NCBI GenBank assembly: GCA_014727915.1
Contig: WJMO01000005.1
Coordinates: forward strand, 288,001 to 352,000
Source of the DNA: Candidatus Altiarchaeales archaeon
Lineage (GTDB): Archaea; Altiarchaeota; Altiarchaeia; IMC4; SCGC-AAA252-I15
DNA: 64,000 bases
Reading direction: 5' to 3'
The translations under genes were made by a program, and so were the position numbers. Every line of letters starts with the position of its first letter. The stretch's first letter is position 1. The notes below the pieces were generated by a model that saw only the letters and a list, made by a program, of their open reading frames with translations, searched no databases and was not told where the DNA came from. Positions 12,955-64,000 of this stretch are shown in pieces.

Positions 12955-14304
12955 CTAGTATCCTGCGTCGTGCTTGGCCCACCGCTCCTTCTCGGTGAGT
13001 ATCCTGCTGATCTCCTGGAATACCGGGGGTATGGGCTTCCTGCCCGACTCAACAGCGTTCCTGTTGACTGGCGCCCTCACGATGAGGGCTCCGTCCACGC
13101 CGTAGTCGTTAACTCCTATCCCCGTGGTCTTGCCCACGTTGTAGTCGTTCAACGTGTGTATGTCCGCTCTGGCAAAGCGCCCGGTCGTCAGCGCATGGTC
13201 TCCCTCCATGTCAGCGGTGAAGACTTCGAAGTCCAAATCCATCAGCGGCCGGTATGCCCTGTAGTGGTTGAAGCCTGCGACATCGTCTGTGCGGATGGTG
13301 GTCACCTCCCCTCCCCTCATGACGGTCAGGCTGGCTCCTGGTATGAGCATCCTCGTGTAGGCCATCATCCTCCCGTCGTCCGCCTGCTCGTATACGACAT
13401 CCCTACTATGGTCTATTCTGCTCCTCTTCATCCTCTGAGCCCTATCAAACTCATCCTGTGCCAACGCCGATGACTGGTGGAACAGTGCGGTCAGGCTTGT
13501 CGGCTTTGTCTCGGTTGACTCCACGTCGGGGATGTACCTCCACATTGGTATGTACACCCCTCCCGGGGTATGATTGCGTTGGATAGTCCCAGCTTCCACA
13601 TCTAGTCTGGGAAATTGTATGTCCATGACAGAGCCTCCGCTCAGTCCCCTCACCAGAAGGCGGGTCCTATCCATGTCCTCCCTTCCCCGGTCTCCTCCGA
13701 TCTTTGTTATGTCGACTTTGCCCTCCCTTCCAGCTCCCCTGCTGAACATGTCCAACAGGCTGCCTTGGAAGCCGAGGGCTTGCAGCGATGGATCGTGTCC
13801 CTCTTCGCCGTCTACCACCACCGCCATAGGCACGCCGTCGCAGTGGCAGCTTATCGCATACTCGTCTCCGCCCCCGAGGGAACATATAACAACATCGCTT
13901 TTCCCGGACCTCAGCGGGTACTGGTCTTTGGGAAGCCTTCCCGCCAGGGCGTCAAAGTACCTCCTGGCGCCTCCAACCTCCTCTAACGTGTTCAGGAAAA
14001 GCCTCATGGCAGTCGGATGCCGGTCCATGGCGTGCGCGAACCCGTCCAGTTGTAGCTCTGGCATGCTCTCAACCAAGTCTCTGAGCAAGTGGGTCCTCTC
14101 CCCCCAGACCCCCGGGTGCCCGCTCCTGGAGTCGACCAGGTCGCGGAGGCTATCGCGTGTTGCGTGGAAATGAGCGTTAGGCCTGCTGATCAGACGTGTT
14201 TTCTCGGCGGCATCCTGTCTTGCAACATCTGCTGGCACCTGGCCTTGCTCTTCCTTCCCCCCCTGGCTTTGACCACCCTTTGGTTTCTCTTCCTCTTTTG
14301 CCAT
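12955..14304 (-). CDS. Hypothetical protein with conserved-His domain and divergent C-terminal cupin-like domain (paralogue of 58417 and 59750)
   Basis: Shared motifs TPGGVYIP, HYRA..FEV, F.R.D.H...D...KTTG. Confidence 0.75.
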   Translation of the reverse strand: MAKEEEKPKGGQSQGGKEEQGQVPADVARQDAAEKTRLISRPNAHFHATRDSLRDLVDSRSGHPGVWGERTHLLRDLVESMPELQLDGFAHAMDRHPTAMRLFLNTLEEVGGARRYFDALAGRLPKDQYPLRSGKSDVVICSLGGGDEYAISCHCDGVPMAVVVDGEEGHDPSLQALGFQGSLLDMFSRGAGREGKVDITKIGGDRGREDMDRTRLLVRGLSGGSVMDIQFPRLDVEAGTIQRNHTPGGVYIPMWRYIPDVESTETKPTSLTALFHQSSALAQDEFDRAQRMKRSRIDHSRDVVYEQADDGRMMAYTRMLIPGASLTVMRGGEVTTIRTDDVAGFNHYRAYRPLMDLDFEVFTADMEGDHALTTGRFARADIHTLNDYNVGKTTGIGVNDYGVDGALIVRAPVNRNAVESGRKPIPPVFQEISRILTEKERWAKHDAGY

Positions 14305-14338: not shown

Positions 14339-17300
14339 CTAATTCGCCTGTTTGCCTTCCCGGGATTTCTCCCTCTTCTCCTCGATCCTCTGCCTCAAGT
14401 ACTCGTAGGCTTTTTTGTGGTCCCAGATGTTCTGGGGAGTCTCCTGGTTTTGGCTCTCAGAGTGCGAGATAATCTCACGCGCCCACCCCCCGCATTCTCT
14501 GCTGTCCAACAAACCCATCTCCTCTCTCCTCTGGAGCAGCCTTCGAGGCGGGAGGGATATGGTCACACTACCCCTGTCTGGGGGGACTCCGGCCTCATCG
14601 TCCAGGATCGCCTCAAGGCCTATCTGCAATGCTATCCCCTCGAACTCTTCGGAGAGCGCTCCGCAGGTGTAGTATGGCTTGTCCGCTCGCCTGCAGCTCC
14701 TCCTGCTCGATAGCAGGGCCTCCGCGAGGGTTGGCGCATACTCTGTCTTCTCCCCCGCGCTCCTGGGGGTTTCTGTGAATGACTCTCCCAGGTCGTTAGA
14801 CCCGTATGATGCTATGTCATAGTACGGGTGCAGTGATGCCATCTTACTCAATCCCATCCTGGATTCATATTGCAATATGAAGAGGACCTGCCTGTCAGGT
14901 GATTTGCCCACCTGTTCGAGCCTGCGCATGATTCTATCGAATGATTCCCTGCAGGCCTGCACGTCGCTGATGTGCTGGGCGTTTGGCAGTATGACCCCCG
15001 TCTGCTGTCGTGCGGTCGCGGCAGACCTTATTATGGCTCCCATGTTGGCGTCGAGCAGCCTGCGCCTACGAGGCTCTGCTATGAACCTAAGGCTGGTCAT
15101 ACCCCCTCTAAGCGCGTCTGGCCCGTATGCCTCCTGCAGTATCGGGAGGTATTTGTCTTCTGTGATGTCGAAGGTCCTCTTTAGGCTTGGGCATTCCCTG
15201 TATTCCGGCGGTGCGTGGTCGTAGAGGTAGTCGTCCACCCTCGAATACCTCCTCGTCAGGTACTCCTCCAGAACCCTGAACGAGTCCGGTTCAAAAACCT
15301 CTATGTGCGTGGGGTGGTCGGGGTTTGCATATGCGATGAACCTCCCTCGGATCCTGCTCTCATCATCGTCGTTGCCTGCAAAGACCAGCAGTTCGTCGCC
15401 CTGATGCCTTAGTGTCAGCTCCTCTCTCAAGTCTGTCCTGACCCTCCATCTCCTGGCTCCTCCGATCTCATCAAGCGGTTCAACCGACTCTACGTGGGAG
15501 CCGGCGTTTATCAGGTCGAACCTGTCGAAGCTGTTATTGGCCTGTTGGATGTTGGCGTAATTGTTATCTCCGAGGGTGAACGCTGGAAGTCTGCTGTTAA
15601 GCTTGACTCTGAGGGGTTGGAGGTCCGTGCTCGTGGCTATCTCGGTCCTGAATAGGTAAAGCCCCTCAGCCCCGTATCTTGTTGCGCGGGCAAGCTGGCT
15701 TTCGTTGAACCCGTTCAAAGTGGCTCCCCCAACTATCCTGAAACCGTCCGATGTGACCATGTTCCTTATCTCCCCGACTTCAGGCTCTATCGATACCTTC
15801 TGGGGTAATACGATCGCGTAACCCCTTTCCGGGCCTTGCAGTTCACAGCCGAAGAACTCACCTATCCTCCTCCCTGGACTCTCTATCATAACAGAGTTCC
15901 GGTCGTCTATGGGGTCTGCGATTAGCACGGGAGTTCCGTCCTCTATCCTATCCAGTTGTTCGGGGTCCACTCCCATGATTATGGCTTGACGCGCGGCTCC
16001 CGCGGCGATAGCTCCATGGCAGTTGCTCTTGCCATGTAATGAGCCCCAGCCTTCGAATCCCATATGCCTCAGCTCGATCACCTGGTCGGGCGTCGGGTCC
16101 CTCGGGAGGATGGCAACCCATCCCTCGTGCAGGCGTGTTAGTGTCTCCTGCGTCTGCCTTCTCATCTGGAGCAGGTCTCCGGCTCTGAGGGCGGTTTCCT
16201 TGAGGCCTCCCTCCATTATGACCTCGTTGCCGTCTATCCGTTCTCCTTCCTTGTCGGCCCAGATCACGCCCAGGAGCTCTCCTACCTTGCCTGGTTCCTC
16301 TGTTGGCGCGTGTATGGTGGCCCATGCGCAGTTTGGGTTCTCGCAGAAGCCGCCTCGCGTGTCCGGGTTGTGGAATGTGTCTTCGACTATCATTACCTCC
16401 TGCCTTCCGCTTTCCATAGCCCTTCTCGCGATGACCGCAGTGCCGTCTTCTGGCTTGTCCAATGGTATCCTAGCATCTCCCGGGACTGTTTGGAAACCTC
16501 CTTTCTTCCACTCGTACCTTGAGACCAGCTCCCTGGAACTGGGTTCCAGCAGGTATACCCCCGCCTGTCTGAAAACGGGTTCCTGGCCCTTTGGTTTGAT
16601 TGCTCTGCGGAGCACGTATGCCAGGATGTGAGTCTCTGAGAATCCGTCTCTGGTGGGCAGCAAAAGAGTCCTCATGTCAGCTTCTGCGTTGGCCCTCTGG
16701 GCGTCGTCCATCTCCTTGGGTTTTCCCTGGTCGTCCAACATGAACTGGCATCTTATGGCCAGCTCCAGGTTGGGGTGGGTTTCCTCCCCTACTGTTAGTG
16801 GCAGTCCTAGGGCGTCAACGATGCCCTGTGTTACCGGCTGGGCTAGCCTGGTGGCCAACGGCATCCTCAACTGTCCCAGGTAGTCTGCTTCACCCTTCCT
16901 CATGGCCTTGAACTCCTTTTCGTCCGTCAGTCCCAGGGCTGCAATCTCAGCGTCGGTCGCGTGCTTTCTACCGGTGGTTATGATGTCCATGAGAGCGTCC
17001 AAACGCCTTATCTGCAGCGGCACCTTGTCTTCACTCACCAGCCCATAGTCTATCACCTTCCCCCTCTCCTGTAGGGGGTCTCTCTTGACTGGCCCGTAGA
17101 CTACCATGCCCGATTCTCCTCCGCTGCCTACCAGCACGACGTTGCCCTGTTCCCTGTGCCTCCTGATCAGGCCCAGTTCGACCAGCTCCTCCGAGAAGCT
17201 GGTATCCTGGAATCTTAGCTCTCCTCCTGATTGTCCTGAAGCTTGCGCCAGCATCTTACCGTACTCTTCAGGGTTATCCTCTCTTTTTTTGATGTAGTCT

Positions 17301-17866
17301 TTCACACGCTGCTGGAAGTTGTCATGGTATGCTACGGTCAGCATGTCTGTCATCTGGCGCACGACCTGCTCGTCGGGGCCAATGGCTATCATATCTATCT
17401 GTCTCGGCTGGTTGTTGTGCGCTTCCGGGCCTTGCACTCCGAGGTCTCTCAGCTGGTCTGACCTGCACATCTCCTGCCATCCGAGGCTTCCGGGGGCGTT
17501 TCCTTCACCGTCTTTTCCCACTGGTATGAACAGCTTGCAGTCTATGTCATCCGGGTTGCCTCCTGTCTTCTTGCACCGTGGGTTATGCTCTCTGATGATC
17601 CTGAAGGTCGTGGTCGCAGGCCTGACGTGCAGCTCCTGCAGTGCCGGGAAAGTCATCTCAACCAGCGTGAGACCCTGGGTTTCAGCCCTTCTCCGTAGGT
17701 CTTCCGTGGTTATCACACCTACCGATCTTGTACTGGCGACTTCTATGGGAGTTGCGCCGGTTATCTGCGGGCCCTGCTCCTCAGGCTTCCTTGGCTGCGG
17801 GGGTTCCTGGGCCTGCGGGGGTTTCACCTCCTTTTGAGGGCCTTTCGGCTGGTCGTCAGATGGCAT
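14339..17866 (-). CDS. HPr / PTS Enzyme I-like fusion protein with inserted GAF-like domain
   Basis: LHVRPA (HPr His), SNCHGAI (EI His domain), GAEGLYLFRTE, RTFDITEDK, GSNDL, TCG (EI barrel). Confidence 0.8.
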   Translation of the reverse strand: MPSDDQPKGPQKEVKPPQAQEPPQPRKPEEQGPQITGATPIEVASTRSVGVITTEDLRRRAETQGLTLVEMTFPALQELHVRPATTTFRIIREHNPRCKKTGGNPDDIDCKLFIPVGKDGEGNAPGSLGWQEMCRSDQLRDLGVQGPEAHNNQPRQIDMIAIGPDEQVVRQMTDMLTVAYHDNFQQRVKDYIKKREDNPEEYGKMLAQASGQSGGELRFQDTSFSEELVELGLIRRHREQGNVVLVGSGGESGMVVYGPVKRDPLQERGKVIDYGLVSEDKVPLQIRRLDALMDIITTGRKHATDAEIAALGLTDEKEFKAMRKGEADYLGQLRMPLATRLAQPVTQGIVDALGLPLTVGEETHPNLELAIRCQFMLDDQGKPKEMDDAQRANAEADMRTLLLPTRDGFSETHILAYVLRRAIKPKGQEPVFRQAGVYLLEPSSRELVSRYEWKKGGFQTVPGDARIPLDKPEDGTAVIARRAMESGRQEVMIVEDTFHNPDTRGGFCENPNCAWATIHAPTEEPGKVGELLGVIWADKEGERIDGNEVIMEGGLKETALRAGDLLQMRRQTQETLTRLHEGWVAILPRDPTPDQVIELRHMGFEGWGSLHGKSNCHGAIAAGAARQAIIMGVDPEQLDRIEDGTPVLIADPIDDRNSVMIESPGRRIGEFFGCELQGPERGYAIVLPQKVSIEPEVGEIRNMVTSDGFRIVGGATLNGFNESQLARATRYGAEGLYLFRTEIATSTDLQPLRVKLNSRLPAFTLGDNNYANIQQANNSFDRFDLINAGSHVESVEPLDEIGGARRWRVRTDLREELTLRHQGDELLVFAGNDDDESRIRGRFIAYANPDHPTHIEVFEPDSFRVLEEYLTRRYSRVDDYLYDHAPPEYRECPSLKRTFDITEDKYLPILQEAYGPDALRGGMTSLRFIAEPRRRRLLDANMGAIIRSAATARQQTGVILPNAQHISDVQACRESFDRIMRRLEQVGKSPDRQVLFILQYESRMGLSKMASLHPYYDIASYGSNDLGESFTETPRSAGEKTEYAPTLAEALLSSRRSCRRADKPYYTCGALSEEFEGIALQIGLEAILDDEAGVPPDRGSVTISLPPRRLLQRREEMGLLDSRECGGWAREIISHSESQNQETPQNIWDHKKAYEYLRQRIEEKREKSREGKQAN

Positions 17867-55786: not shown

Positions 55787-56311
55787 TTATGCCTTTGTTT
55801 TCACATATACCATTACTGTCTCTCCTTTTGTGTTTTTCCCCGGTTCTAGCGTCATGTCCGCTTCGTTTGTGCTGTGGACTCCCCCGTCCTGGACCTGTTT
55901 CACCTTCATGTCCGCTGCTATCGCCTGCCCTATCTGTTTCCTGGCCTCCGGGTTCAGTGGGTTGGCTGGGTTGAACTGGGTTTTAAGCAGTTCTGTCGGG
56001 TCCTCAACGACGAAACCTACGGCCACACCTATCAGCCCGCGTTCACTACTCTTTTCAGCTACCCTGGGGGATATGAGCTTTGGTTCTGCGGTTCTTTCGT
56101 AGTCTGTTGGGTACATGATCACCACTCCCCTGAGTTCTGGGAACCTGCTTCCCAATTGGTTAACGGTTCCTTGGAGGCTTTCAAATCCCTTCTCTGCAAC
56201 CGCTCTGAATGCCATGACCTCGCCTGTCAGGTTCTTTTCGATTTCAGGTTCTGTTTCCCCGGGGTTGAACCGTGGCATCACACCATCAGTCCCTATCCTC
56301 CTCTTTTTCAT
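55787..56311 (-). CDS. Hypothetical protein
   Basis: ORF with basic N-terminus MKKRR; start taken at ATG 56311. Confidence 0.55.
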   Translation of the reverse strand: MKKRRIGTDGVMPRFNPGETEPEIEKNLTGEVMAFRAVAEKGFESLQGTVNQLGSRFPELRGVVIMYPTDYERTAEPKLISPRVAEKSSERGLIGVAVGFVVEDPTELLKTQFNPANPLNPEARKQIGQAIAADMKVKQVQDGGVHSTNEADMTLEPGKNTKGETVMVYVKTKA

Positions 56312-56318
56312 GGTCTGT

Positions 56319-57101
56319 TTACACTTTTGGCAGTCTGCCTTTTTTAACAGCAGACGGCCGGACCACACCATACTTCCGCTTTTCTGCGGGTGGCTTCAAT
56401 TCGCCCAACTCCTTGGGTGGTAGATCAGCTGTCATATCGCTGTCTGCCTTGGGTGGTAGATTAGATGTCATATCGATGTCCGAATCCCCAGGTCCCCCTG
56501 TCTGGCTGACCCCGCCTCCAGTCAACATCCTCTTGACCCTCTTAAAAAACCATGTGAATCCCCTTGGCTCTTCACTCTCCCCACCCTGTCTGGGCGTGCC
56601 TTGCAAGCCATGTTTCAGTAGTGAGTCCAGGACTTTCAGTTCTGTTTGTAGGAGATGCTCCCTATCCAGGAGTGCTTGCGACACGCGTTCACCCCCTTCT
56701 TTCACCCTCATGCGTATCTCTCCCTTAGTGAAGTCCTCGTTTATCATTATCCCATGTTGGGTCTCCATGGTCAGCTGTATGCCCTCATCGTTGATCGCGA
56801 CCACACCCCCCCTGTCCCCGCACCTATAGTCGTATTCCCCCGGTTCATATCTCCGCTCAGGGTCGTATTTCTCCCACTTTGGCTGGGGGTGAGCTTCCCC
56901 CCATCTCTTATACTCTTCTCCCATCATACGCTCTACTTCCCCCAGTTCCCTCCCCAGTTCCATGAGTCTTTCAGGGCCTCTTCCACTGGCTATTACCCCC
57001 TGCACCCTAAGCATAATCTCATCGTAAACCTTCTCTTCCGCCCCCAATGCCCTTCTCACTTCAGCTGAAGCATAACCTTTTCTCTCCACAACTTTTCCCA
57101 T
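56319..57101 (-). CDS. Hypothetical protein with a 12-aa internal repeat near the C-terminus
   Basis: Start taken at ATG 57101 (upstream part overlaps glmU); DMT..LPPK twice. Confidence 0.6.
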   Translation of the reverse strand: MGKVVERKGYASAEVRRALGAEEKVYDEIMLRVQGVIASGRGPERLMELGRELGEVERMMGEEYKRWGEAHPQPKWEKYDPERRYEPGEYDYRCGDRGGVVAINDEGIQLTMETQHGIMINEDFTKGEIRMRVKEGGERVSQALLDREHLLQTELKVLDSLLKHGLQGTPRQGGESEEPRGFTWFFKRVKRMLTGGGVSQTGGPGDSDIDMTSNLPPKADSDMTADLPPKELGELKPPAEKRKYGVVRPSAVKKGRLPKV

Positions 57102-57156
57102 CAATAAATACTGGGATGAATTCTTTTTTATCCTTGTTCTCCGTTGATAATACAAC

Positions 57157-58380
57157 ATGGACGCCGTTGTTCTGGCTGCGGGTGAGGGCACGCGTTTGAG
57201 GCCTTTGACCTCCACTAGGCCCAAGCCCATGCTGCCCGTTGCTGGCAAGCCCATCCTGGAATGGAACCTGGAGGCCCTCGACTGTGTGGGTGTGAAGAAG
57301 GCTGTCATCGTAGTCGGGTACATGCGGGAGGCCATCGAATCCTATTTCGGGAGGAAGTTCCGGAAGGTGAGGCTCGAGTACGTGGAGCAGAAGGAGCAGT
57401 TGGGCACTGCTAACGCCTTGTCGTCTGCCAGGGGCATGGTGAAGGGGGAGTTCATCGTGTTGAACGGCGACCTCTTCATAACCCGGAAGGTTCTTTCATC
57501 GCTCATCGAAGCCCATGGCAGGCACGGGGCAGAGGTGACTATGTCCCTTGTTGAGGTCAGGGAACCCCGTTCGTTCGGGATCGTCGAGGTGAGCCGTGGC
57601 AAGGTCGAGTCACTGGTCGAGAAGCCGAAGCGGCCGAAGAGCAACCTCGCGAACGCTGGCGTGTACATATTCAAAGAAGGCATATTCGAGGTCATTGAGG
57701 GGTTGAAGAAGAGCGTGCGGATGGAATACGAGCTCACAGACGCCATCGGCAGGCTGATCAAAGACGGTGTCGTCTACGGTTGCAGGAACGAGGAGGGCCA
57801 GTGGATAGACGTAGGTTTGCCCTGGAACCTTTTGGACGCGAACGAGATCGTCATGAAGAGCGTTCCGTTGAAGATGAGCAAGAAGGCGACAGTCGAAGAC
57901 TATGCTGTCCTCAAGGGCTCTGTTAACGTCGGCGACGGCACGGTCATAAGGTCGGGCTCGTACATCGAGGGTCCCGTGTACATCGGCAGGGACTGTGTGA
58001 TCGGCCCCAACTGTTACATACGCCCCCACACCGTAATAATGGACGGTTGCAAGGTGGGCAACGCCGTCGAGGTCAAGAACTCCATAATCATGCCGCGAAC
58101 ATGCGTCGGCCACCTGTCATACGTTGGGGATTCAATAATCGGGGAGGGCTGCAACTTCGGCGCGGGCACCAAGGTCGCCAACCTTCGGTTCGACGACGGG
58201 GAAGTGTCCATTGAGGTCAAGCAGAATATGGTAATGTCCGGCCGGCGGAAGTTCGGGGTCCTCATGGGCGACAACGTGAAGACGGGCATAAACGTGTCCA
58301 TAATGCCTGGCCGTTCCATCTACCCGAACGCCTACGTGGACGCCGGCAGCGTGGTGAAGAACACCATATACACGGAATAG
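57157..58380 (+). CDS. glmU: Bifunctional sugar-1-phosphate nucleotidyltransferase/acetyltransferase (archaeal GlmU)
   Basis: LAAGEGTRLRPLT..RPKPM, hexapeptide repeats, HLSYVGDS, NFGAGTKVANLRFD, GRRKFG. Confidence 0.93.
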   Translation: MDAVVLAAGEGTRLRPLTSTRPKPMLPVAGKPILEWNLEALDCVGVKKAVIVVGYMREAIESYFGRKFRKVRLEYVEQKEQLGTANALSSARGMVKGEFIVLNGDLFITRKVLSSLIEAHGRHGAEVTMSLVEVREPRSFGIVEVSRGKVESLVEKPKRPKSNLANAGVYIFKEGIFEVIEGLKKSVRMEYELTDAIGRLIKDGVVYGCRNEEGQWIDVGLPWNLLDANEIVMKSVPLKMSKKATVEDYAVLKGSVNVGDGTVIRSGSYIEGPVYIGRDCVIGPNCYIRPHTVIMDGCKVGNAVEVKNSIIMPRTCVGHLSYVGDSIIGEGCNFGAGTKVANLRFDDGEVSIEVKQNMVMSGRRKFGVLMGDNVKTGINVSIMPGRSIYPNAYVDAGSVVKNTIYTE

Positions 58381-58416: not shown

Positions 58417-59748
58417 ATGGCTAAAAAGCATGCTAATCTAAATGTAGGGGCTGGAGGCGGTGAGGAGGGCGTTCCGGTAGCGAGGCTGGAGCAGCCTGCA
58501 GGCCTCAAACTCTCCGAGGAGGATATGATGGGGCGTTATCTCATCTTTTCCGACGAGCCTCGGGAATTGGCGGCGATCGCATCGGGAGATAAGCCTAATC
58601 CCGCGGATAACATCGCGGGTTTCCTGCGTGCCGGCCAGAGGTTCGGGTTCTGTGTCTCCCCCTTCATGGGATATACGCGCGTGGAGCCGGCTTCGCATCC
58701 TGTCGTCTCATCCGCGTGCAGTATGAGGGCTACACTCCCTTCCGAGAACATTTACTCTCTCGGGTCTGTGGGGCCCGACCCCGAAGACCCTTCCAAGACC
58801 CTGGTCTACATAAGCAGGCCTGCGTGGATCCCAGAATACGGCCCTGATGTCGTGGAGGACCGTACCGTGGCCGCTCTTCACGCCTTGGGCGTAGCAAAGG
58901 ATGCTGTCGTCGACTCCCCCCGGAGGAGGATGCTTGATCTTCTGGACGAGGAGGGATGCTTCTCCTGGGTTGTCGACCATAACAATAAGCTTGCGTATGT
59001 GGCTGACATGGAGACTGGCCATCCCGAGATAGTCATGGAACACACGAAGGACGGAAAGCGTTTGGCTGACAACTTCAGGAGGCAGAGGGCGCCGATCGAG
59101 GAGAGGACGGGCAAGTATACCGAGCGGTTCAGCTGGGGTAGCGTCGAGTCCCTGGAGGACGAGGTAAGCGGCGTTGAAGTTGCTTCACTACACGTGCAGT
59201 TCCTAGGGAAGAGCACATATAGCAACCCCTATAAGAGGTGGACCGAGGTCGTGGATGTGCTAACCCGCTCTGGCATGCCTGAACAGGTCAGGCTGGTCCC
59301 TCCAGAACAGCTTAAGTCTCTGAAGGGGGTTTTACCCGGGACGGTGGAGAGGGGGAAGACCCCCAATGGCGTGGGCATCCCCTACTTTCCGCGGGCGGTC
59401 TCGGAAGAAGGCTACCGCTACAGCCAGTTTACCCTCCCGAGCGGCGAACATTATCTGAAGATAGGGGGGCCGCTTCTGCGGCATGACCGCGCGATAACCG
59501 CGATCGACCGTGCGGGAAGCTTCGAGGTCTACAACGACAGCAGCAGCCAGGAGGATGATGGTGTCAAGCGCGGTTCTTTCGTGAACGGCGACTATGACGG
59601 CATCCGTGATGGACCCTCCCATAAGACCAGCAATGGTCCCGTTGGAGGTGGGAGCATGATAGCGAGGGTGCCCGATAAGGACAACCCTGATCTGATTTTG
59701 GGTCGGATTGCCAGGGTTGTTGGCAGGGATTGGAGTAAGATGGACTGA
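58417..59748 (+). CDS. Hypothetical protein: duplicated conserved-His domain plus cupin-like C-terminus (tandem paralogue 1)
   Basis: Colinear similarity to 59750-61081; GDYDGIRDGPSHKTSN resembles cupin motif 2. Confidence 0.78.
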   Translation: MAKKHANLNVGAGGGEEGVPVARLEQPAGLKLSEEDMMGRYLIFSDEPRELAAIASGDKPNPADNIAGFLRAGQRFGFCVSPFMGYTRVEPASHPVVSSACSMRATLPSENIYSLGSVGPDPEDPSKTLVYISRPAWIPEYGPDVVEDRTVAALHALGVAKDAVVDSPRRRMLDLLDEEGCFSWVVDHNNKLAYVADMETGHPEIVMEHTKDGKRLADNFRRQRAPIEERTGKYTERFSWGSVESLEDEVSGVEVASLHVQFLGKSTYSNPYKRWTEVVDVLTRSGMPEQVRLVPPEQLKSLKGVLPGTVERGKTPNGVGIPYFPRAVSEEGYRYSQFTLPSGEHYLKIGGPLLRHDRAITAIDRAGSFEVYNDSSSQEDDGVKRGSFVNGDYDGIRDGPSHKTSNGPVGGGSMIARVPDKDNPDLILGRIARVVGRDWSKMD

Positions 59749-59749
59749 G

Positions 59750-61081
59750 ATGGGCAAGAAATCTGTTTCAAAGAGTGTGCAGGATAGTGGCGGTGGCGAT
59801 GTCCCGGTCTCGCGGTTGGAGCAGCCGTCTGGCTTGGCGGTTTCAGAGGATGGGCTCCGGATGAAGTACTGGCAGATGGAGGCTGACGAGAGGGTATTGG
59901 CTGATATCGCTTCCGGCAGGATTAACGATCCCTCTGAAGCAGTTCCCGGTCTTCTGGGTCGGGGGAGGATGATGGCGTTCAAGGTCTCTCCCCTCACGGG
60001 CCTGGCTTTGGTGGAGGAGGCGGACTTCCATGTTGTCAGCTCCAGCTTCGGCGGCTCCACCAGGCACGACGATGATAGGGTCTATTCTTTCGGTTGTGTG
60101 GTGCCGGGCGAGTCTGGCAAGCCCGTGATAGACATCTCACGCGCTGGTGTGGTTCCAGAGTATGGATGTGAGGTGTCGGAGCAGAGGACAGTGGATGCAT
60201 TGCATGCCATCGGCGTTCCAGGAGACTCTGGTGTCCGCTCTCCCAGGATTATGATGTCGAGGCTTTTCGAGGATGAGGGCGGCTTCTCCTTTGTCGTCGA
60301 CCATGATGAACGGCTTGTACTGGTTGATGACCTTGAAGCCGGCCATGCCGAGATCATAAGCGACAACGTGCGGGGCGGGGACGCGATCATCTCGGCTTTC
60401 AAGGGATTGGGCGGTGGCCCGCGTGATCGTGAATGCGAGTACACTCGGAGGTTCACCTGGGGTGTGGTCCAGCCGCTATTGGATGATGTAAGCGGCTTGA
60501 CGGTGAATGAGATGCAGTTCGAGCAGATTGCCAGTCATCCGCTGATGGACGGCCAGGCCGTGTACCTCCAGGCATGTTCCCTGCTTTCCGAGGCTGGAAT
60601 GCCTGATGCGATACGTTTGTCCTCCCCTGACAATTGCATTGTGCCCGAAGGCGTTCATGTGAGGAGCGTCCACCGCGGCAGGACACCCCAGGGGGTTGAG
60701 ATACCCTCTTGGACGGGAGTCCTTAGAGAGGGTAGCCACTGGTACACCGGGTTTCGGATACCTTCAGTCGCCGATAAGATAGGGTTGGGTCTGTTGCACC
60801 ATGCCAGGGCTGTGGAGCCCATTTCAGGCGCCGGCGAATTCGAGGTCTACAACGATGATGTGTCCGAGCCTGGCCAGCCAAAGATGGGCGGGTTTCGGAG
60901 GGGCGACTTCCATGGTGTATCGGACGGTGAGTACTGCAAGACGAGCGGGGCTTCCGACGGCGGGTTCATGTATGTGCGGGTCAGGTCAGGGGGGTCTGCT
61001 GGGGGCGTCCCGTCCGAGGTCACGCAGGTATTCAAGGCGATATCAGATGCGTTGAACAGGGATTACAGCAAAAAACCCTGA
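59750..61081 (+). CDS. Hypothetical protein: duplicated conserved-His domain plus cupin-like C-terminus (tandem paralogue 2)
   Basis: VPV.RLEQP.GL..SE, PEYG, RTV.ALHA.GV, TP.GV.IP and FEVYND shared with 58417; start ATG 59750. Confidence 0.78.
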   Translation: MGKKSVSKSVQDSGGGDVPVSRLEQPSGLAVSEDGLRMKYWQMEADERVLADIASGRINDPSEAVPGLLGRGRMMAFKVSPLTGLALVEEADFHVVSSSFGGSTRHDDDRVYSFGCVVPGESGKPVIDISRAGVVPEYGCEVSEQRTVDALHAIGVPGDSGVRSPRIMMSRLFEDEGGFSFVVDHDERLVLVDDLEAGHAEIISDNVRGGDAIISAFKGLGGGPRDRECEYTRRFTWGVVQPLLDDVSGLTVNEMQFEQIASHPLMDGQAVYLQACSLLSEAGMPDAIRLSSPDNCIVPEGVHVRSVHRGRTPQGVEIPSWTGVLREGSHWYTGFRIPSVADKIGLGLLHHARAVEPISGAGEFEVYNDDVSEPGQPKMGGFRRGDFHGVSDGEYCKTSGASDGGFMYVRVRSGGSAGGVPSEVTQVFKAISDALNRDYSKKP

Positions 61082-61330: not shown

Positions 61331-62149
61331 TTGATCAGGCGTCCGGCTGTCGCGGGCCAGTTCTACAGCGGCAGCGTGTCGGGTTTGAAGGAGCAGGTGG
61401 AGTCCTGCTTAGACTTGAACGCCGAGAGATTCGACGCTTTGGGTGTGGTGTCCCCCCACGCGGGCTTGATGTACAGTGGCCCTGTGGCGGGGGCGGTATA
61501 CTCGCGGATCAACATGCCCGACACGTTCGTAATACTCGGGCCGAACCATCATGGTTTGGGAGCTGACTTCGGCATCATGACCGAGGGCATCTGGAACATG
61601 CCCTTTGGGGATGTGCGGGTGGATTCCATGCTTGCCAGGGAGATCTTCAAGAACTGCGGGAGCCTCGAGGAGGACCCGTTCGGCCAGGAGCGGGAGCACA
61701 GCCTGGAGGTCCAGGTCCCGTTCATGCAGTATTTCTCAGACAGCTTCCAGATAGTGCCCATAGCCTTGAGGCATTACAGCCCAGACGAGGGTTTCCTCGG
61801 GGTTTGTGAGGACATCGGCAACGCGATAGCTTCGGTGGTGTCAAAGGTCGATTCCAGGGTTGTGATTGTGGCGAGCACTGACTTCACCCACTATCAGCCC
61901 CAGGAGGTCGCGGAGGAGAACGACCATGCCGCCTTGGACGCGATACTCTCATTGGATGCCGGGGCGCTGTTCAAGGAGGTGTCTTCGAGAGGTATCAGCA
62001 TGTGCGGCTACGCTCCGGTGGCTGTGATGCTGACCGCATGCAAGGGATTGGGAGCCTCTAGGGCCGAGCTTGTCAAATACCTGACCTCAGGGGACACGAC
62101 GGGAGACTACTCTGCTGTCGTAGGATACGGGGGTGTCGTGGTACGGTAG
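61331..62149 (+). CDS. amrB: MEMO1 family protein (AmmeMemoRadiSam protein B)
   Basis: RRPAVAGQFY, PHAG..YSG, GPNH, EHSLEVQ.PF, ASTDFTHY, MCG, SGD..VVGY. Confidence 0.94.
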   Translation: MIRRPAVAGQFYSGSVSGLKEQVESCLDLNAERFDALGVVSPHAGLMYSGPVAGAVYSRINMPDTFVILGPNHHGLGADFGIMTEGIWNMPFGDVRVDSMLAREIFKNCGSLEEDPFGQEREHSLEVQVPFMQYFSDSFQIVPIALRHYSPDEGFLGVCEDIGNAIASVVSKVDSRVVIVASTDFTHYQPQEVAEENDHAALDAILSLDAGALFKEVSSRGISMCGYAPVAVMLTACKGLGASRAELVKYLTSGDTTGDYSAVVGYGGVVVR

Positions 62150-62621: not shown

Positions 62622-64000
62622 CTACCTTTTTCTCAACTTTGACTTCAACACGCCAGCGACTATTATCAGAGACATCAGCAGCGCCGCATACATTATTATG
62701 TCATCCTGGCTTATCTCAAGCTCCTCCTTCACGGTCGTTGTGGTGGAAGTCTGGGTGGTGGTGGTCTTGCTGGCCAGCCCCTCCCTGCTGAGTTCAATGA
62801 GGGTTTTAGCGACGTTCATCCCCGGCTCATACCCAACCCTCTCGTATTCCTCATAAGCCCTTTCCGCGTATTCCAATGACGTCTCAAAGGACCCGTTTAT
62901 GTAGTGTGATTCTGCAGTCTCATAGTATCTCTGTCCGGCTTCCCTGTTTTTTATTGTCGCGATTATCTCGGCGGCTTTCCCGGTGTTCAGCTCAGCCAGC
63001 TCCCTGGACCTGTTCAGCCCCTTCTCATAGCCTATAAGCTTGTACATCTCGATGGACTGCTGGGCCGCCTCTATGCTCGCATTGTACCTGCCCGCCTCAT
63101 AGTGTTCGATCGCCTTCCTATAGTACTGTTCCGCCTCTATTATGTTCATGGACTTTGTTGCGAGGCTTCTGGCGTCTGACTCGTTGGGGGTCAACCCGAC
63201 CTCCTTGTATATCTCGGCTGCCATGTTGGCGTGTTCGATGGTCGTCTCGAAGTCTTCCAATTCGAAGTACTTCAACGCTTCGAGGTATTGCTTGTACGCT
63301 TCCCTGGCTTTGAAGATGTCCTCGTCTATCCTATATGATATTATCCCGTCGTTGGTGCCCACGAACAGCCTGACGAAACCCTCCTCTCTGACGGGCTTTA
63401 TGGAGAGTATCTTATCTCTGACCTGGTGTTCCCAGTTCACCTCTCCCCGTGGGTTGATGAATGCGAGGGTGCTTCCCGCCCCCACTAGAAGGTAGTTCTG
63501 GCTTGACCCGTATATTCCCATGGCGCTTATGGCCTCTATGTTGGGCCTGCCGTGGCTCCAGAGCCTGTTACCCGCCGAGTCGTAGACGTGGATTATGTCC
63601 TCTGAAAGGCCGATGTATTCGGGTTTTCCGTCCCCGTCCAGGTCGTAGGCTTCTGCCATGTCATACCTGCTTTCGGCAGGCTGTTCCCACATTGTCTCCC
63701 CGTTGTCGTCTAAGAGGTATAGGCCTTTGAAGCCTGCTATGATGTATTCCATCTTCTTGTCGCCGTCCGCGTTCACGGGCTTGGCATCCCACACAGACCC
63801 GTCCATGGTCAGCTCTTTCAAGACGTTACCCTCATGGTCGTATGCGCGTATCCTGTTGTCTACGGATGATGTTATGATGTCTGTCTTACCATCTCCGTTG
63901 GCGTCGGCGAAGCTTATGCTCGTTATCAAACCCGTGTCCTTGACCATCCAAACGTACCTGTTATACAGCCTGTCCAAGCCAACCTCGGGTATCCTCTGGT
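62622..64000 (-). CDS. 3' part of a surface protein: FG-GAP/beta-propeller repeats, TPR-like helices, Thr linker and C-terminal TM anchor
   Basis: DANGDGKTDI and DLDGDGKPE repeats; helical repeats; TM followed by KSKLRKR; frame extends beyond the window. Confidence 0.8.
   Translation of the reverse strand, partial: QRIPEVGLDRLYNRYVWMVKDTGLITSISFADANGDGKTDIITSSVDNRIRAYDHEGNVLKELTMDGSVWDAKPVNADGDKKMEYIIAGFKGLYLLDDNGETMWEQPAESRYDMAEAYDLDGDGKPEYIGLSEDIIHVYDSAGNRLWSHGRPNIEAISAMGIYGSSQNYLLVGAGSTLAFINPRGEVNWEHQVRDKILSIKPVREEGFVRLFVGTNDGIISYRIDEDIFKAREAYKQYLEALKYFELEDFETTIEHANMAAEIYKEVGLTPNESDARSLATKSMNIIEAEQYYRKAIEHYEAGRYNASIEAAQQSIEMYKLIGYEKGLNRSRELAELNTGKAAEIIATIKNREAGQRYYETAESHYINGSFETSLEYAERAYEEYERVGYEPGMNVAKTLIELSREGLASKTTTTQTSTTTTVKEELEISQDDIIMYAALLMSLIIVAGVLKSKLRKR

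Follow-up and report, generated by a model that had tools for sequence, protein, structure and literature searches.

A rare archaeal protein family with a predicted HPr-like domain and an Enzyme I-like gene neighbour: candidate components of a histidine phosphorelay

We analysed a stretch of 64,000 nucleotides from a Candidatus Altiarchaeales archaeon (contig WJMO01000005.1, positions 288,001 to 352,000), hereafter called the window, and followed up a tandem pair of genes, P0001 and P0002, within it. The two proteins are members of a very rare archaeal family. Their C-terminal domain is predicted to have the fold and the His-x-Arg active-site signature of HPr, the phosphocarrier of the phosphoenolpyruvate (PEP)-dependent phosphotransferase system (PTS), and other members of the family are encoded directly beside a gene for a relative of PTS Enzyme I. 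We see about an even chance that the family members relay or accept phosphate on histidine within a PTS-like system that is soluble and serves no transport. Somewhat more tentatively, we propose an undescribed archaeal PEP-driven histidine phosphorelay, in which a giant Enzyme I homologue with an HPr-like head would work with a new HPr-fused partner family that has four copies in this genome. On that proposal, the His-bearing alpha/beta domain of the family would have a fold unseen in solved structures and would be either a new EIIA-like acceptor or a phosphohistidine phosphatase. What we show below by computation comprises the paralogy and internal duplication, the fold predictions, the set of invariant residues, and the neighbourhood and co-occurrence of the genes.

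The sequence-only reading had described two paralogues of about 443 amino acids (aa), one nucleotide apart, that follow glmU. This was borne out by the open reading frames (ORFs), their translations, BLASTP and a Pfam search of the upstream gene. P0001 and P0002 are paralogues, with 39% identity over 418 aa (BLASTP, expect value (E) 2e-86), and a single nucleotide separates the stop codon of P0001 from the ATG of P0002. The N-termini of the two proteins are similar (MAKK... and MGKK..., each followed by VPV.RLEQP.GL). We therefore placed the start of P0002 at the ATG at 59750 and not at the upstream TTG. P0001 matched the profile of the family at E 1.7e-228.

The evidence for an HPr-like domain came mainly from structure prediction. 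The AlphaFold2 model of P0001, which was made from a 16-sequence alignment, had a mean predicted local distance difference test score (pLDDT) of 73.2 and a predicted template modelling score (pTM) of 0.59. In this model, residues 333-435 formed four strands and three helices in the order beta-alpha-beta-beta-alpha-beta-alpha, which is the open-faced sandwich of HPr. When the model was compared with 48,161 solved chains by VIA-align, HPr structures took ranks 1-4. They were 1kkl_H (6.4; 2.3; 77 / 86), 9s8b_C (6.4; 2.4; 79 / 85), 1pch_A (6.3; 2.4; 78 / 88) and 7ff5_A (5.8; 2.6; 78 / 84), with the match statistics in brackets. All four matches covered residues 333-439 of the model and the full HPr chain, and the non-HPr folds began 1.8 Z units below them.

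The active-site position of HPr is His15. In the family, His356 (P0001 numbering, codon 59482-59484) was kept in 18 of 18 members and stood immediately before a helix assigned by DSSP to residues 357-364. An Arg followed at position +2 in 15 of the 18, giving motifs such as G-G-L-H-A-R-A. The best local hhalign alignment placed His356 and Arg358 on His15 and Arg17 of HPr. The placement of His356, together with the Arg at +2, fits HPr specifically.

It had been suggested before that this third domain is a degenerate cupin, and this part of the sequence-only reading has to be given up. The loose resemblance to cupin motif 2 was seen in P0001 only, where the motif falls in a loop and a short helix between strands 3 and 4. 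Its His (in 'PSHKTS') is not conserved in P0002 or in P0003, a third paralogue encoded elsewhere in the genome. The model, with four strands and three helices in the order given above, contains no double-stranded beta-helix. Its best matches among solved structures were HPr, with no cupin listed, and no Pfam family, cupin included, matched the isolated domain at E<=10. A cupin is thus extremely improbable here.

The gene neighbourhood is the strongest functional clue. A family member lay directly beside an Enzyme I-like gene in six loci, namely in G000 (the genome containing the window; 1.81 Mb, 13 contigs, 90.6% complete), G004, G008, G019, the metagenome contig L046 and G020; among these, G008 and G019 are congeners. 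In G004, G008 and G019, the member was directly downstream of a gene for a PEP-utilizers_C protein of 922-970 aa on the same strand, and the metagenome contig encoding P0008 had the same arrangement. In G020 (C71:1-1914; L025), a divergent member was tail to tail with an ORF that matched the C-terminal third of the G004 protein (E 7e-20). The contig of P0005 was cut upstream. For a distant match in G015, the one neighbour that was compared seemed to resemble the N-terminus of the Enzyme I-like protein, but BLASTP did not bear this out (E 1.8).

In the window itself, the neighbour is a protein of 1175 aa, encoded next to the family member P0017. It matched Pfam PEP-utilizers_C, the PEP-binding TIM-barrel domain, with 24.6 bits (cut-off 22.8). 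Its homologue in G008 is the 970-aa protein beside the family member there (E 4e-57), for which the same Pfam match reached 66.1 bits. The 'PTS-like kinase' that the sequence-only reading had mentioned in the window was thereby traced to this gene. Among PDB sequences, the G008 protein matched PTS Enzyme I best (2hro_A, E 6.6e-16); PEP synthase followed at a wide distance (E 1.6e-3). BLASTP aligned the G008 protein with residues 165-572 of Escherichia coli PtsI (E 4e-16). In Enzyme I, a catalytic His, an NDL motif and a Cys have known functional roles, and all three have aligned counterparts. The phosphohistidine of Enzyme I, His189 (T-S-H), aligned with an archaeal His that is invariant in five of five homologues, G-T-N-D-L was paired with G-L-N-D-L, and the cysteine of C-G-E (Cys502) was paired with C-G. 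The Pfam PEP-utilizers match on the mobile domain that carries the phosphohistidine reached 19.8 bits, below the cut-off of 23.1. Judged from these alignments, the neighbour is a true Enzyme I relative. The N-terminal segment of the archaeal Enzyme I-like proteins carries the motif L-H-x-(R/A)-P-(A/S), which reads 'LHVRPA' in the 1175-aa protein, and it matched PTS-HPr weakly (E 0.0057 for G019 and E 0.22 for G008). The middle region before the mobile domain is GAF-like by eye only, and Pfam gave no GAF match there at E<=10.

The distribution of the enzyme agreed with that of the family. We searched the N-terminal 500 residues of the G008 enzyme against the 61 genomes of the phylum, which is a single class in the collection used. 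Matches at E<=1e-28 were found in G000, G004, G008 and G019 only, and the same four genomes are those with full-length family members. Weak partial matches to the N-terminal half of the enzyme appeared in G011 and G001. Proteins matching Pfam PTS-HPr were present in four of the 61 genomes (G000, G008, G019 and G011); the PF00381 search of G000 returned only one, a stand-alone protein of 158 aa (Table 1). In G000, which is 90.6% complete, there was no match to Dak2 or PTS_EIIA_2, and PTS_EIIC gave only a 16-bit match below the cut-off. This fits a relay that is not coupled to transport. A complex prediction for residues 400-760 of the Enzyme I-like protein with residues 235-449 of P0017 scored 0.00, was run without controls and gave no evidence either way.

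The remainder of each tandem protein consists mainly of two units of about 100 aa. Although a BLASTP self-comparison detected no internal repeat, hhalign matched the three paralogues' unit 1 (residues 60-165 in P0001) to the family-wide profile of unit 2 (166-293) at 97.1% probability (E 6.2e-11, 106 columns). MAFFT also placed the units in register through F-x-F-C-V-x-P...G-H, R-F-S-x-G and L...G-x-P. The two units are therefore real, and the internal duplication proposed earlier stands. The units differ: the Gly-His that unit 2 carries, with the invariant His202 (codon 59020-59022), was kept in 18 of 18 members. At the corresponding column of unit 1, a His was found only in P0001; P0002 has one a residue later, and P0003 has none. 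In canonical members, the place of unit 1 is taken by another N-terminal region that looks helical. No relation between the unit and the unrelated C-terminal domain was detected by hhalign (E 0.2-0.66).

When unit 2 was modelled alone (P0001 residues 158-302, 18-row alignment), the model had a pLDDT of 89 and a pTM of 0.82. Its elements ran in the order helix, strand, strand, helix (from the Gly-His), helix, short helix, strand, strand, helix, strand. In P0001 and P0002, an insertion of about 19 residues, which other members do not share, contributes part of the helical stretch. Foldseek found nothing in PDB at E<=1e-3 for either the whole model or the unit; for the whole model, rows with S-adenosylmethionine synthetase and gelsolin had template modelling scores of about 0.1. 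On the evidence of these models, the repeated unit is without a convincing structural relative.

The sequence-only reading had likened the unit to the phosphohistidine phosphatase PHPT1 of the Janus/Ocnus type. In the fold comparison, PHPT1 tied with ADF-H/gelsolin. The Ocnus hidden Markov model (HMM; PF05005) had no match at E<=10 in the whole genome, and the unit profile retrieved no PHPT1 from the PDB sequences, where its best match was a non-significant one to lipoate-protein ligase A (E ~1). The idea therefore has, so far, no support beyond a generic resemblance. Furthermore, 'EYGP' occurs solely in unit 1 of the double-unit paralogues, and across the family the unit does not conserve the PHPT1-like 'YGP' loop. 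If the unit were nevertheless a distant PHPT1/Janus-type phosphatase, His202 would be its catalytic His, and it would reset the HPr-like domain or other phosphohistidine proteins of the relay by dephosphorylation, instead of handing the phosphate on. Such a unit would be related to the animal phosphohistidine phosphatase, which is rare for a prokaryotic domain, and would be joined to its likely substrate in one chain. We consider this quite unlikely.

Using a profile of the three double-unit paralogues, we searched 1.84 billion cluster representatives with HMMER and found 15 proteins at E<=1e-3, P0001 and P0002 included. Among the 61 genomes, matches at E<=1e-5 occurred in seven, all of one taxonomic family, and matches at E<=1e-6 in six. 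The other members have 300-444 aa and matched mainly profile positions ~165-433, which correspond to one unit and the C-terminal part. Whole proteins had no Pfam or NCBIfam match at E<=1, PADLOC and PHROGs scans of whole proteins returned no families, and Pfam scans of the separate domains gave nothing at E<=10. The family and unit profiles found nothing significant among PDB sequences. ESM Atlas offered no usable lead, and its model of the protein has a pLDDT of 0.32. A search for relatives in metagenomes returned two contigs. Two candidates were rejected: a match in G026 (E 3.5e-4) was lost once a larger profile was used, and a Faecalitalea match from the search over genome contigs was spurious.

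The genome-wide copy count for G000, which the sequence-only reading had named as a check, is four (P0001, P0002, P0003 and P0017). P0017 carries every invariant family residue in the alignments. P0003 has 445 aa and is encoded on contig C6, which is archaeal in character; a Nop5 gene of archaeal type, identified by eye, lies beside it. A long cysteine-rich ORF, also beside P0003 (contig C6; L003 2246-3514), has many repeated motifs of C-x-x-C type and a hydrophobic stretch at its N-terminus. A maximum-likelihood tree of 18 members placed P0001 and P0002 as sisters (support 94/91). Together with P0003, they formed a clade (support 100/100) apart from the 15 other members, P0017 among them, in a tree with long branches. 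The tandem pair and P0003 are a species-specific offshoot of the family.

Some further features of the alignments are worth recording. In the linker between unit 2 and the HPr-like domain, T315, G318 and I321 are invariant, and the modelled segment had a pLDDT of 88-94. Between this linker and the HPr-like domain, P0008, P0011, P0012, P0014, P0016 and P0017 have a charged, helical-looking insertion of 40-70 residues, which is absent from the tandem paralogues. Many members have K-G-D or something close to it as their last residues (SKGD, TKGD, DGD, GGD, KTD, KMD; residues 440-443 in P0001), and a conserved extreme C-terminus is unusual.

Several observations weigh against the assignment of a phosphorelay role. 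No sequence method ties the C-terminal domain to HPr. The hhalign comparison with a profile of nine HPr-type domains (E. coli HPr, NPr, FruB and DhaM, and five archaeal domains) was not significant (E 0.069, probability 0.8%), and Pfam PTS-HPr (PF00381) did not match the isolated domain at E<=10. Three of the 18 members have H-Y-G and not H-x-R. The G020 member keeps the Gly-His unit and has a different C-terminus without H-x-R, so the unit, and not the HPr-like domain, may be the part tied to the enzyme. The BLASTP alignment with PtsI left no counterpart for the first 164 residues of Enzyme I, including its HPr-binding helical subdomain, although a divergent equivalent may be present. None of P0001, P0002 and P0003 is encoded beside the Enzyme I-like gene; the pair lies ~41 kb from it. 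The congener G001 does not have the pair. Finally, the HPr-like head of the Enzyme I-like protein and the stand-alone HPr-like protein imply that the family domain would not be needed for a relay.

A rival explanation is that only a generic alpha/beta likeness is involved. The family members would then be no phosphocarriers but subunits with a regulatory or binding role in the Enzyme I-like enzyme, or else scaffolds of the ADF-H/gelsolin kind, with the conserved His residues binding a ligand or a metal. Against this, the HPr chains took the first four ranks over the whole domain, ahead of other folds by the Z units given above. The invariant His and the Arg at +2 fall exactly at the positions of His15 and Arg17, and the one neighbour that is conserved is related by homology to the enzyme from which HPr receives its phosphate. 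This explanation seems to us unlikely, though less so than the phosphatase.

Returning to the phosphorelay, we infer every phosphotransfer step and the order of the steps. The conserved His of the Enzyme I-like protein (14339-17866) would be phosphorylated by PEP, and the phosphate would then pass to the HPr-like His356 (P0001 numbering), either directly or via the HPr-like N-terminus of the Enzyme I-like protein. From His356, it might be transferred to His202 of the alpha/beta unit, or be removed by His202. In P0001, P0002 and P0003, a second, degenerate unit has taken the place of the usual helical N-terminus. On this proposal, the three genes then spread or were duplicated to sites apart from the Enzyme I-like gene, probably forming additional relay branches. 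All three double-unit paralogues retain His202 and His356; the His of unit 1 is not conserved among them. As both histidines are retained, these branches are probably functional.

Table 1. Coordinates of the genes and domains discussed (positions in the window unless another contig is named)
Feature	Position	Strand	Basis or remark
P0001 gene, first tandem paralogue, 443 aa	58417-59748	+	ORF and translation
Unit 1 of P0001, residues ~60-165, degenerate alpha/beta 'GH' unit	58594-58911	+	hhalign, alignments
Unit 2 of P0001, residues 166-300, family-wide alpha/beta domain	58912-59316	+	motif FSF(C/V)V..P..G....D.E.GH.E
Conserved linker R-G-x-T-P-x-G-x-x-I-P, P0001 residues 312-322	59350-59382	+	alignments
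Predicted HPr-like C-terminal domain of P0001, residues ~328-443	59398-59745	+	AlphaFold model, structure matches
P0002 gene, second tandem paralogue, 443 aa, architecture as P0001	59750-61081	+	ORF and translation
P0017 gene, 449 aa, canonical single-unit member, more divergent	12955-14304	-	family profile E 3.2e-22 and 5e-7
Enzyme I-like PEP-utilising protein gene, 1175 aa	14339-17866	-	34 nt upstream of P0017
Class-I aminoacyl-tRNA synthetase-like ORF, 800 aa	53383-55785		identified by eye
GlmU-like sugar-1-phosphate nucleotidyltransferase/acetyltransferase gene	57157-58380	+	Pfam NTP_transferase E 3.6e-50, Hexapep E 2.4e-22
Memo-like gene	61331-62149		250 nt downstream of the pair
Stand-alone HPr-like protein, 158 aa, G-L-H-I-R-P-A	G000:C12:14975-15175 (L035 1333-1809)	-	PF00381 24 bits, just over cut-off

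The surroundings of the tandem pair were also compared with those in a congener. The GlmU-like gene ends 36 nt upstream of P0001 on the same strand and is probably co-transcribed with the pair. G001, a genome of the same genus that is 92% complete, retains homologues of glmU and Memo and has no family member. It holds a 198-nt stretch that matches the sequence directly 3′ of the P0002 stop codon. Where G000 carries the 2.7-kb pair, G001 has about 0.4 kb, and the further genes differ. The absence of the pair at the glmU/Memo site of the congener implies either an acquisition at the species level or a loss in the congener. Two overlapping ORFs of 194 and 338 aa without Pfam match (55787-57335, minus strand) separate the aminoacyl-tRNA synthetase-like gene from glmU. 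G001 has the former gene next to glmU, so that this stretch, too, varies between the genomes. Near the end of the window, a protein of 451 aa (62622-63977, minus strand) contains FG-GAP repeats and a stretch weakly resembling TPR, with a hydrophobic anchor at the C-terminus.

The other neighbours of the Enzyme I-like genes differ among genomes. In G000, the segment 12955-17866 with P0017 and the Enzyme I-like gene lies inside a lipoate/glycine-cleavage cluster. Lipoyl synthase and the glycine-cleavage P and T genes (GcvP1/P2, GcvT) are on one side, and LplA and a dihydrolipoamide dehydrogenase-like oxidoreductase of the pyridine-nucleotide disulphide type are on the other. In G008 and G019, the other neighbours encode UDP-glucose dehydrogenase, a GalU-type transferase and three epimerases. 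In G008, an ORF of 1358 aa with no Pfam match at E<=0.01 (L017 2483-6559, minus strand) is found just upstream of the gene for the Enzyme I-like protein. We considered a link to sugar nucleotidyltransferases (GlmU-like here, GalU-type in G008 and G019) as a functional clue and left it undecided, since G001 has glmU but no pair, and the genes around P0017 and P0003 are different. The stand-alone HPr-like gene, which lies outside the window, stands between an RtcB-like gene and an archaeal dehydroquinate synthase gene, the latter identified by eye.

To our knowledge, phosphorelays of the PTS type are regarded as essentially bacterial. Judged from abstracts, no paper on such an archaeal system was found in the literature. 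According to a 2008 survey, no PTS proteins occur in the archaea examined, save for one plasmid-borne fructose system (PMC2405797). Here, an archaeal lineage has an Enzyme I homologue, with catalytic residues aligned to those of E. coli Enzyme I, beside a family that is new to Pfam and NCBIfam. If the relay is true, it would provide a new acceptor domain for phosphohistidine signalling, and it would be tractable in vitro with PEP and two recombinant proteins.

Compared with HPr, NPr and FPr (PF00381), the family domain lacks significant sequence similarity and has a 15-residue loop before its His. Unlike HPr, it is fused behind a large domain of no known family and the conserved linker. Compared with the bacterial PTS, the archaeal host has no recognisable EII components, and compared with PHPT1/Janus, the unit has neither the HMM nor the profile match, nor the family-wide loop. 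The arrangement resembles PTS-Ntr in that an Enzyme I homologue has an extra N-terminal sensor-like region and no transporter partners; Enzyme I-Ntr carries an N-terminal GAF domain (PMC2405797). It differs from PTS-Ntr in that the archaeal enzyme has an HPr-like N-terminus and no aligned HPr-binding subdomain, that its GAF likeness was seen by eye only, and that no EIIA-Ntr homologue was found in G000. Another parallel is provided by FruB and DhaM. FruB of E. coli has the order EIIA-M-FPr, and DhaM the order EIIA-HPr-EI-N. The family members are of similar size (320-450 aa), and in them, too, an HPr-like domain is joined to a domain with its own conserved His. By analogy, they may share the logic of an intramolecular His-to-His relay. 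Unlike in FruB and DhaM, the partner domain belongs to none of the EIIA types in Pfam. The surroundings contain no genes for fructose or dihydroxyacetone, and the search for Dak2 had no result. PTS-type phosphorelays are a known kind of system, and the proposed archaeal one would include a partner family that contains a domain without a recognised fold.

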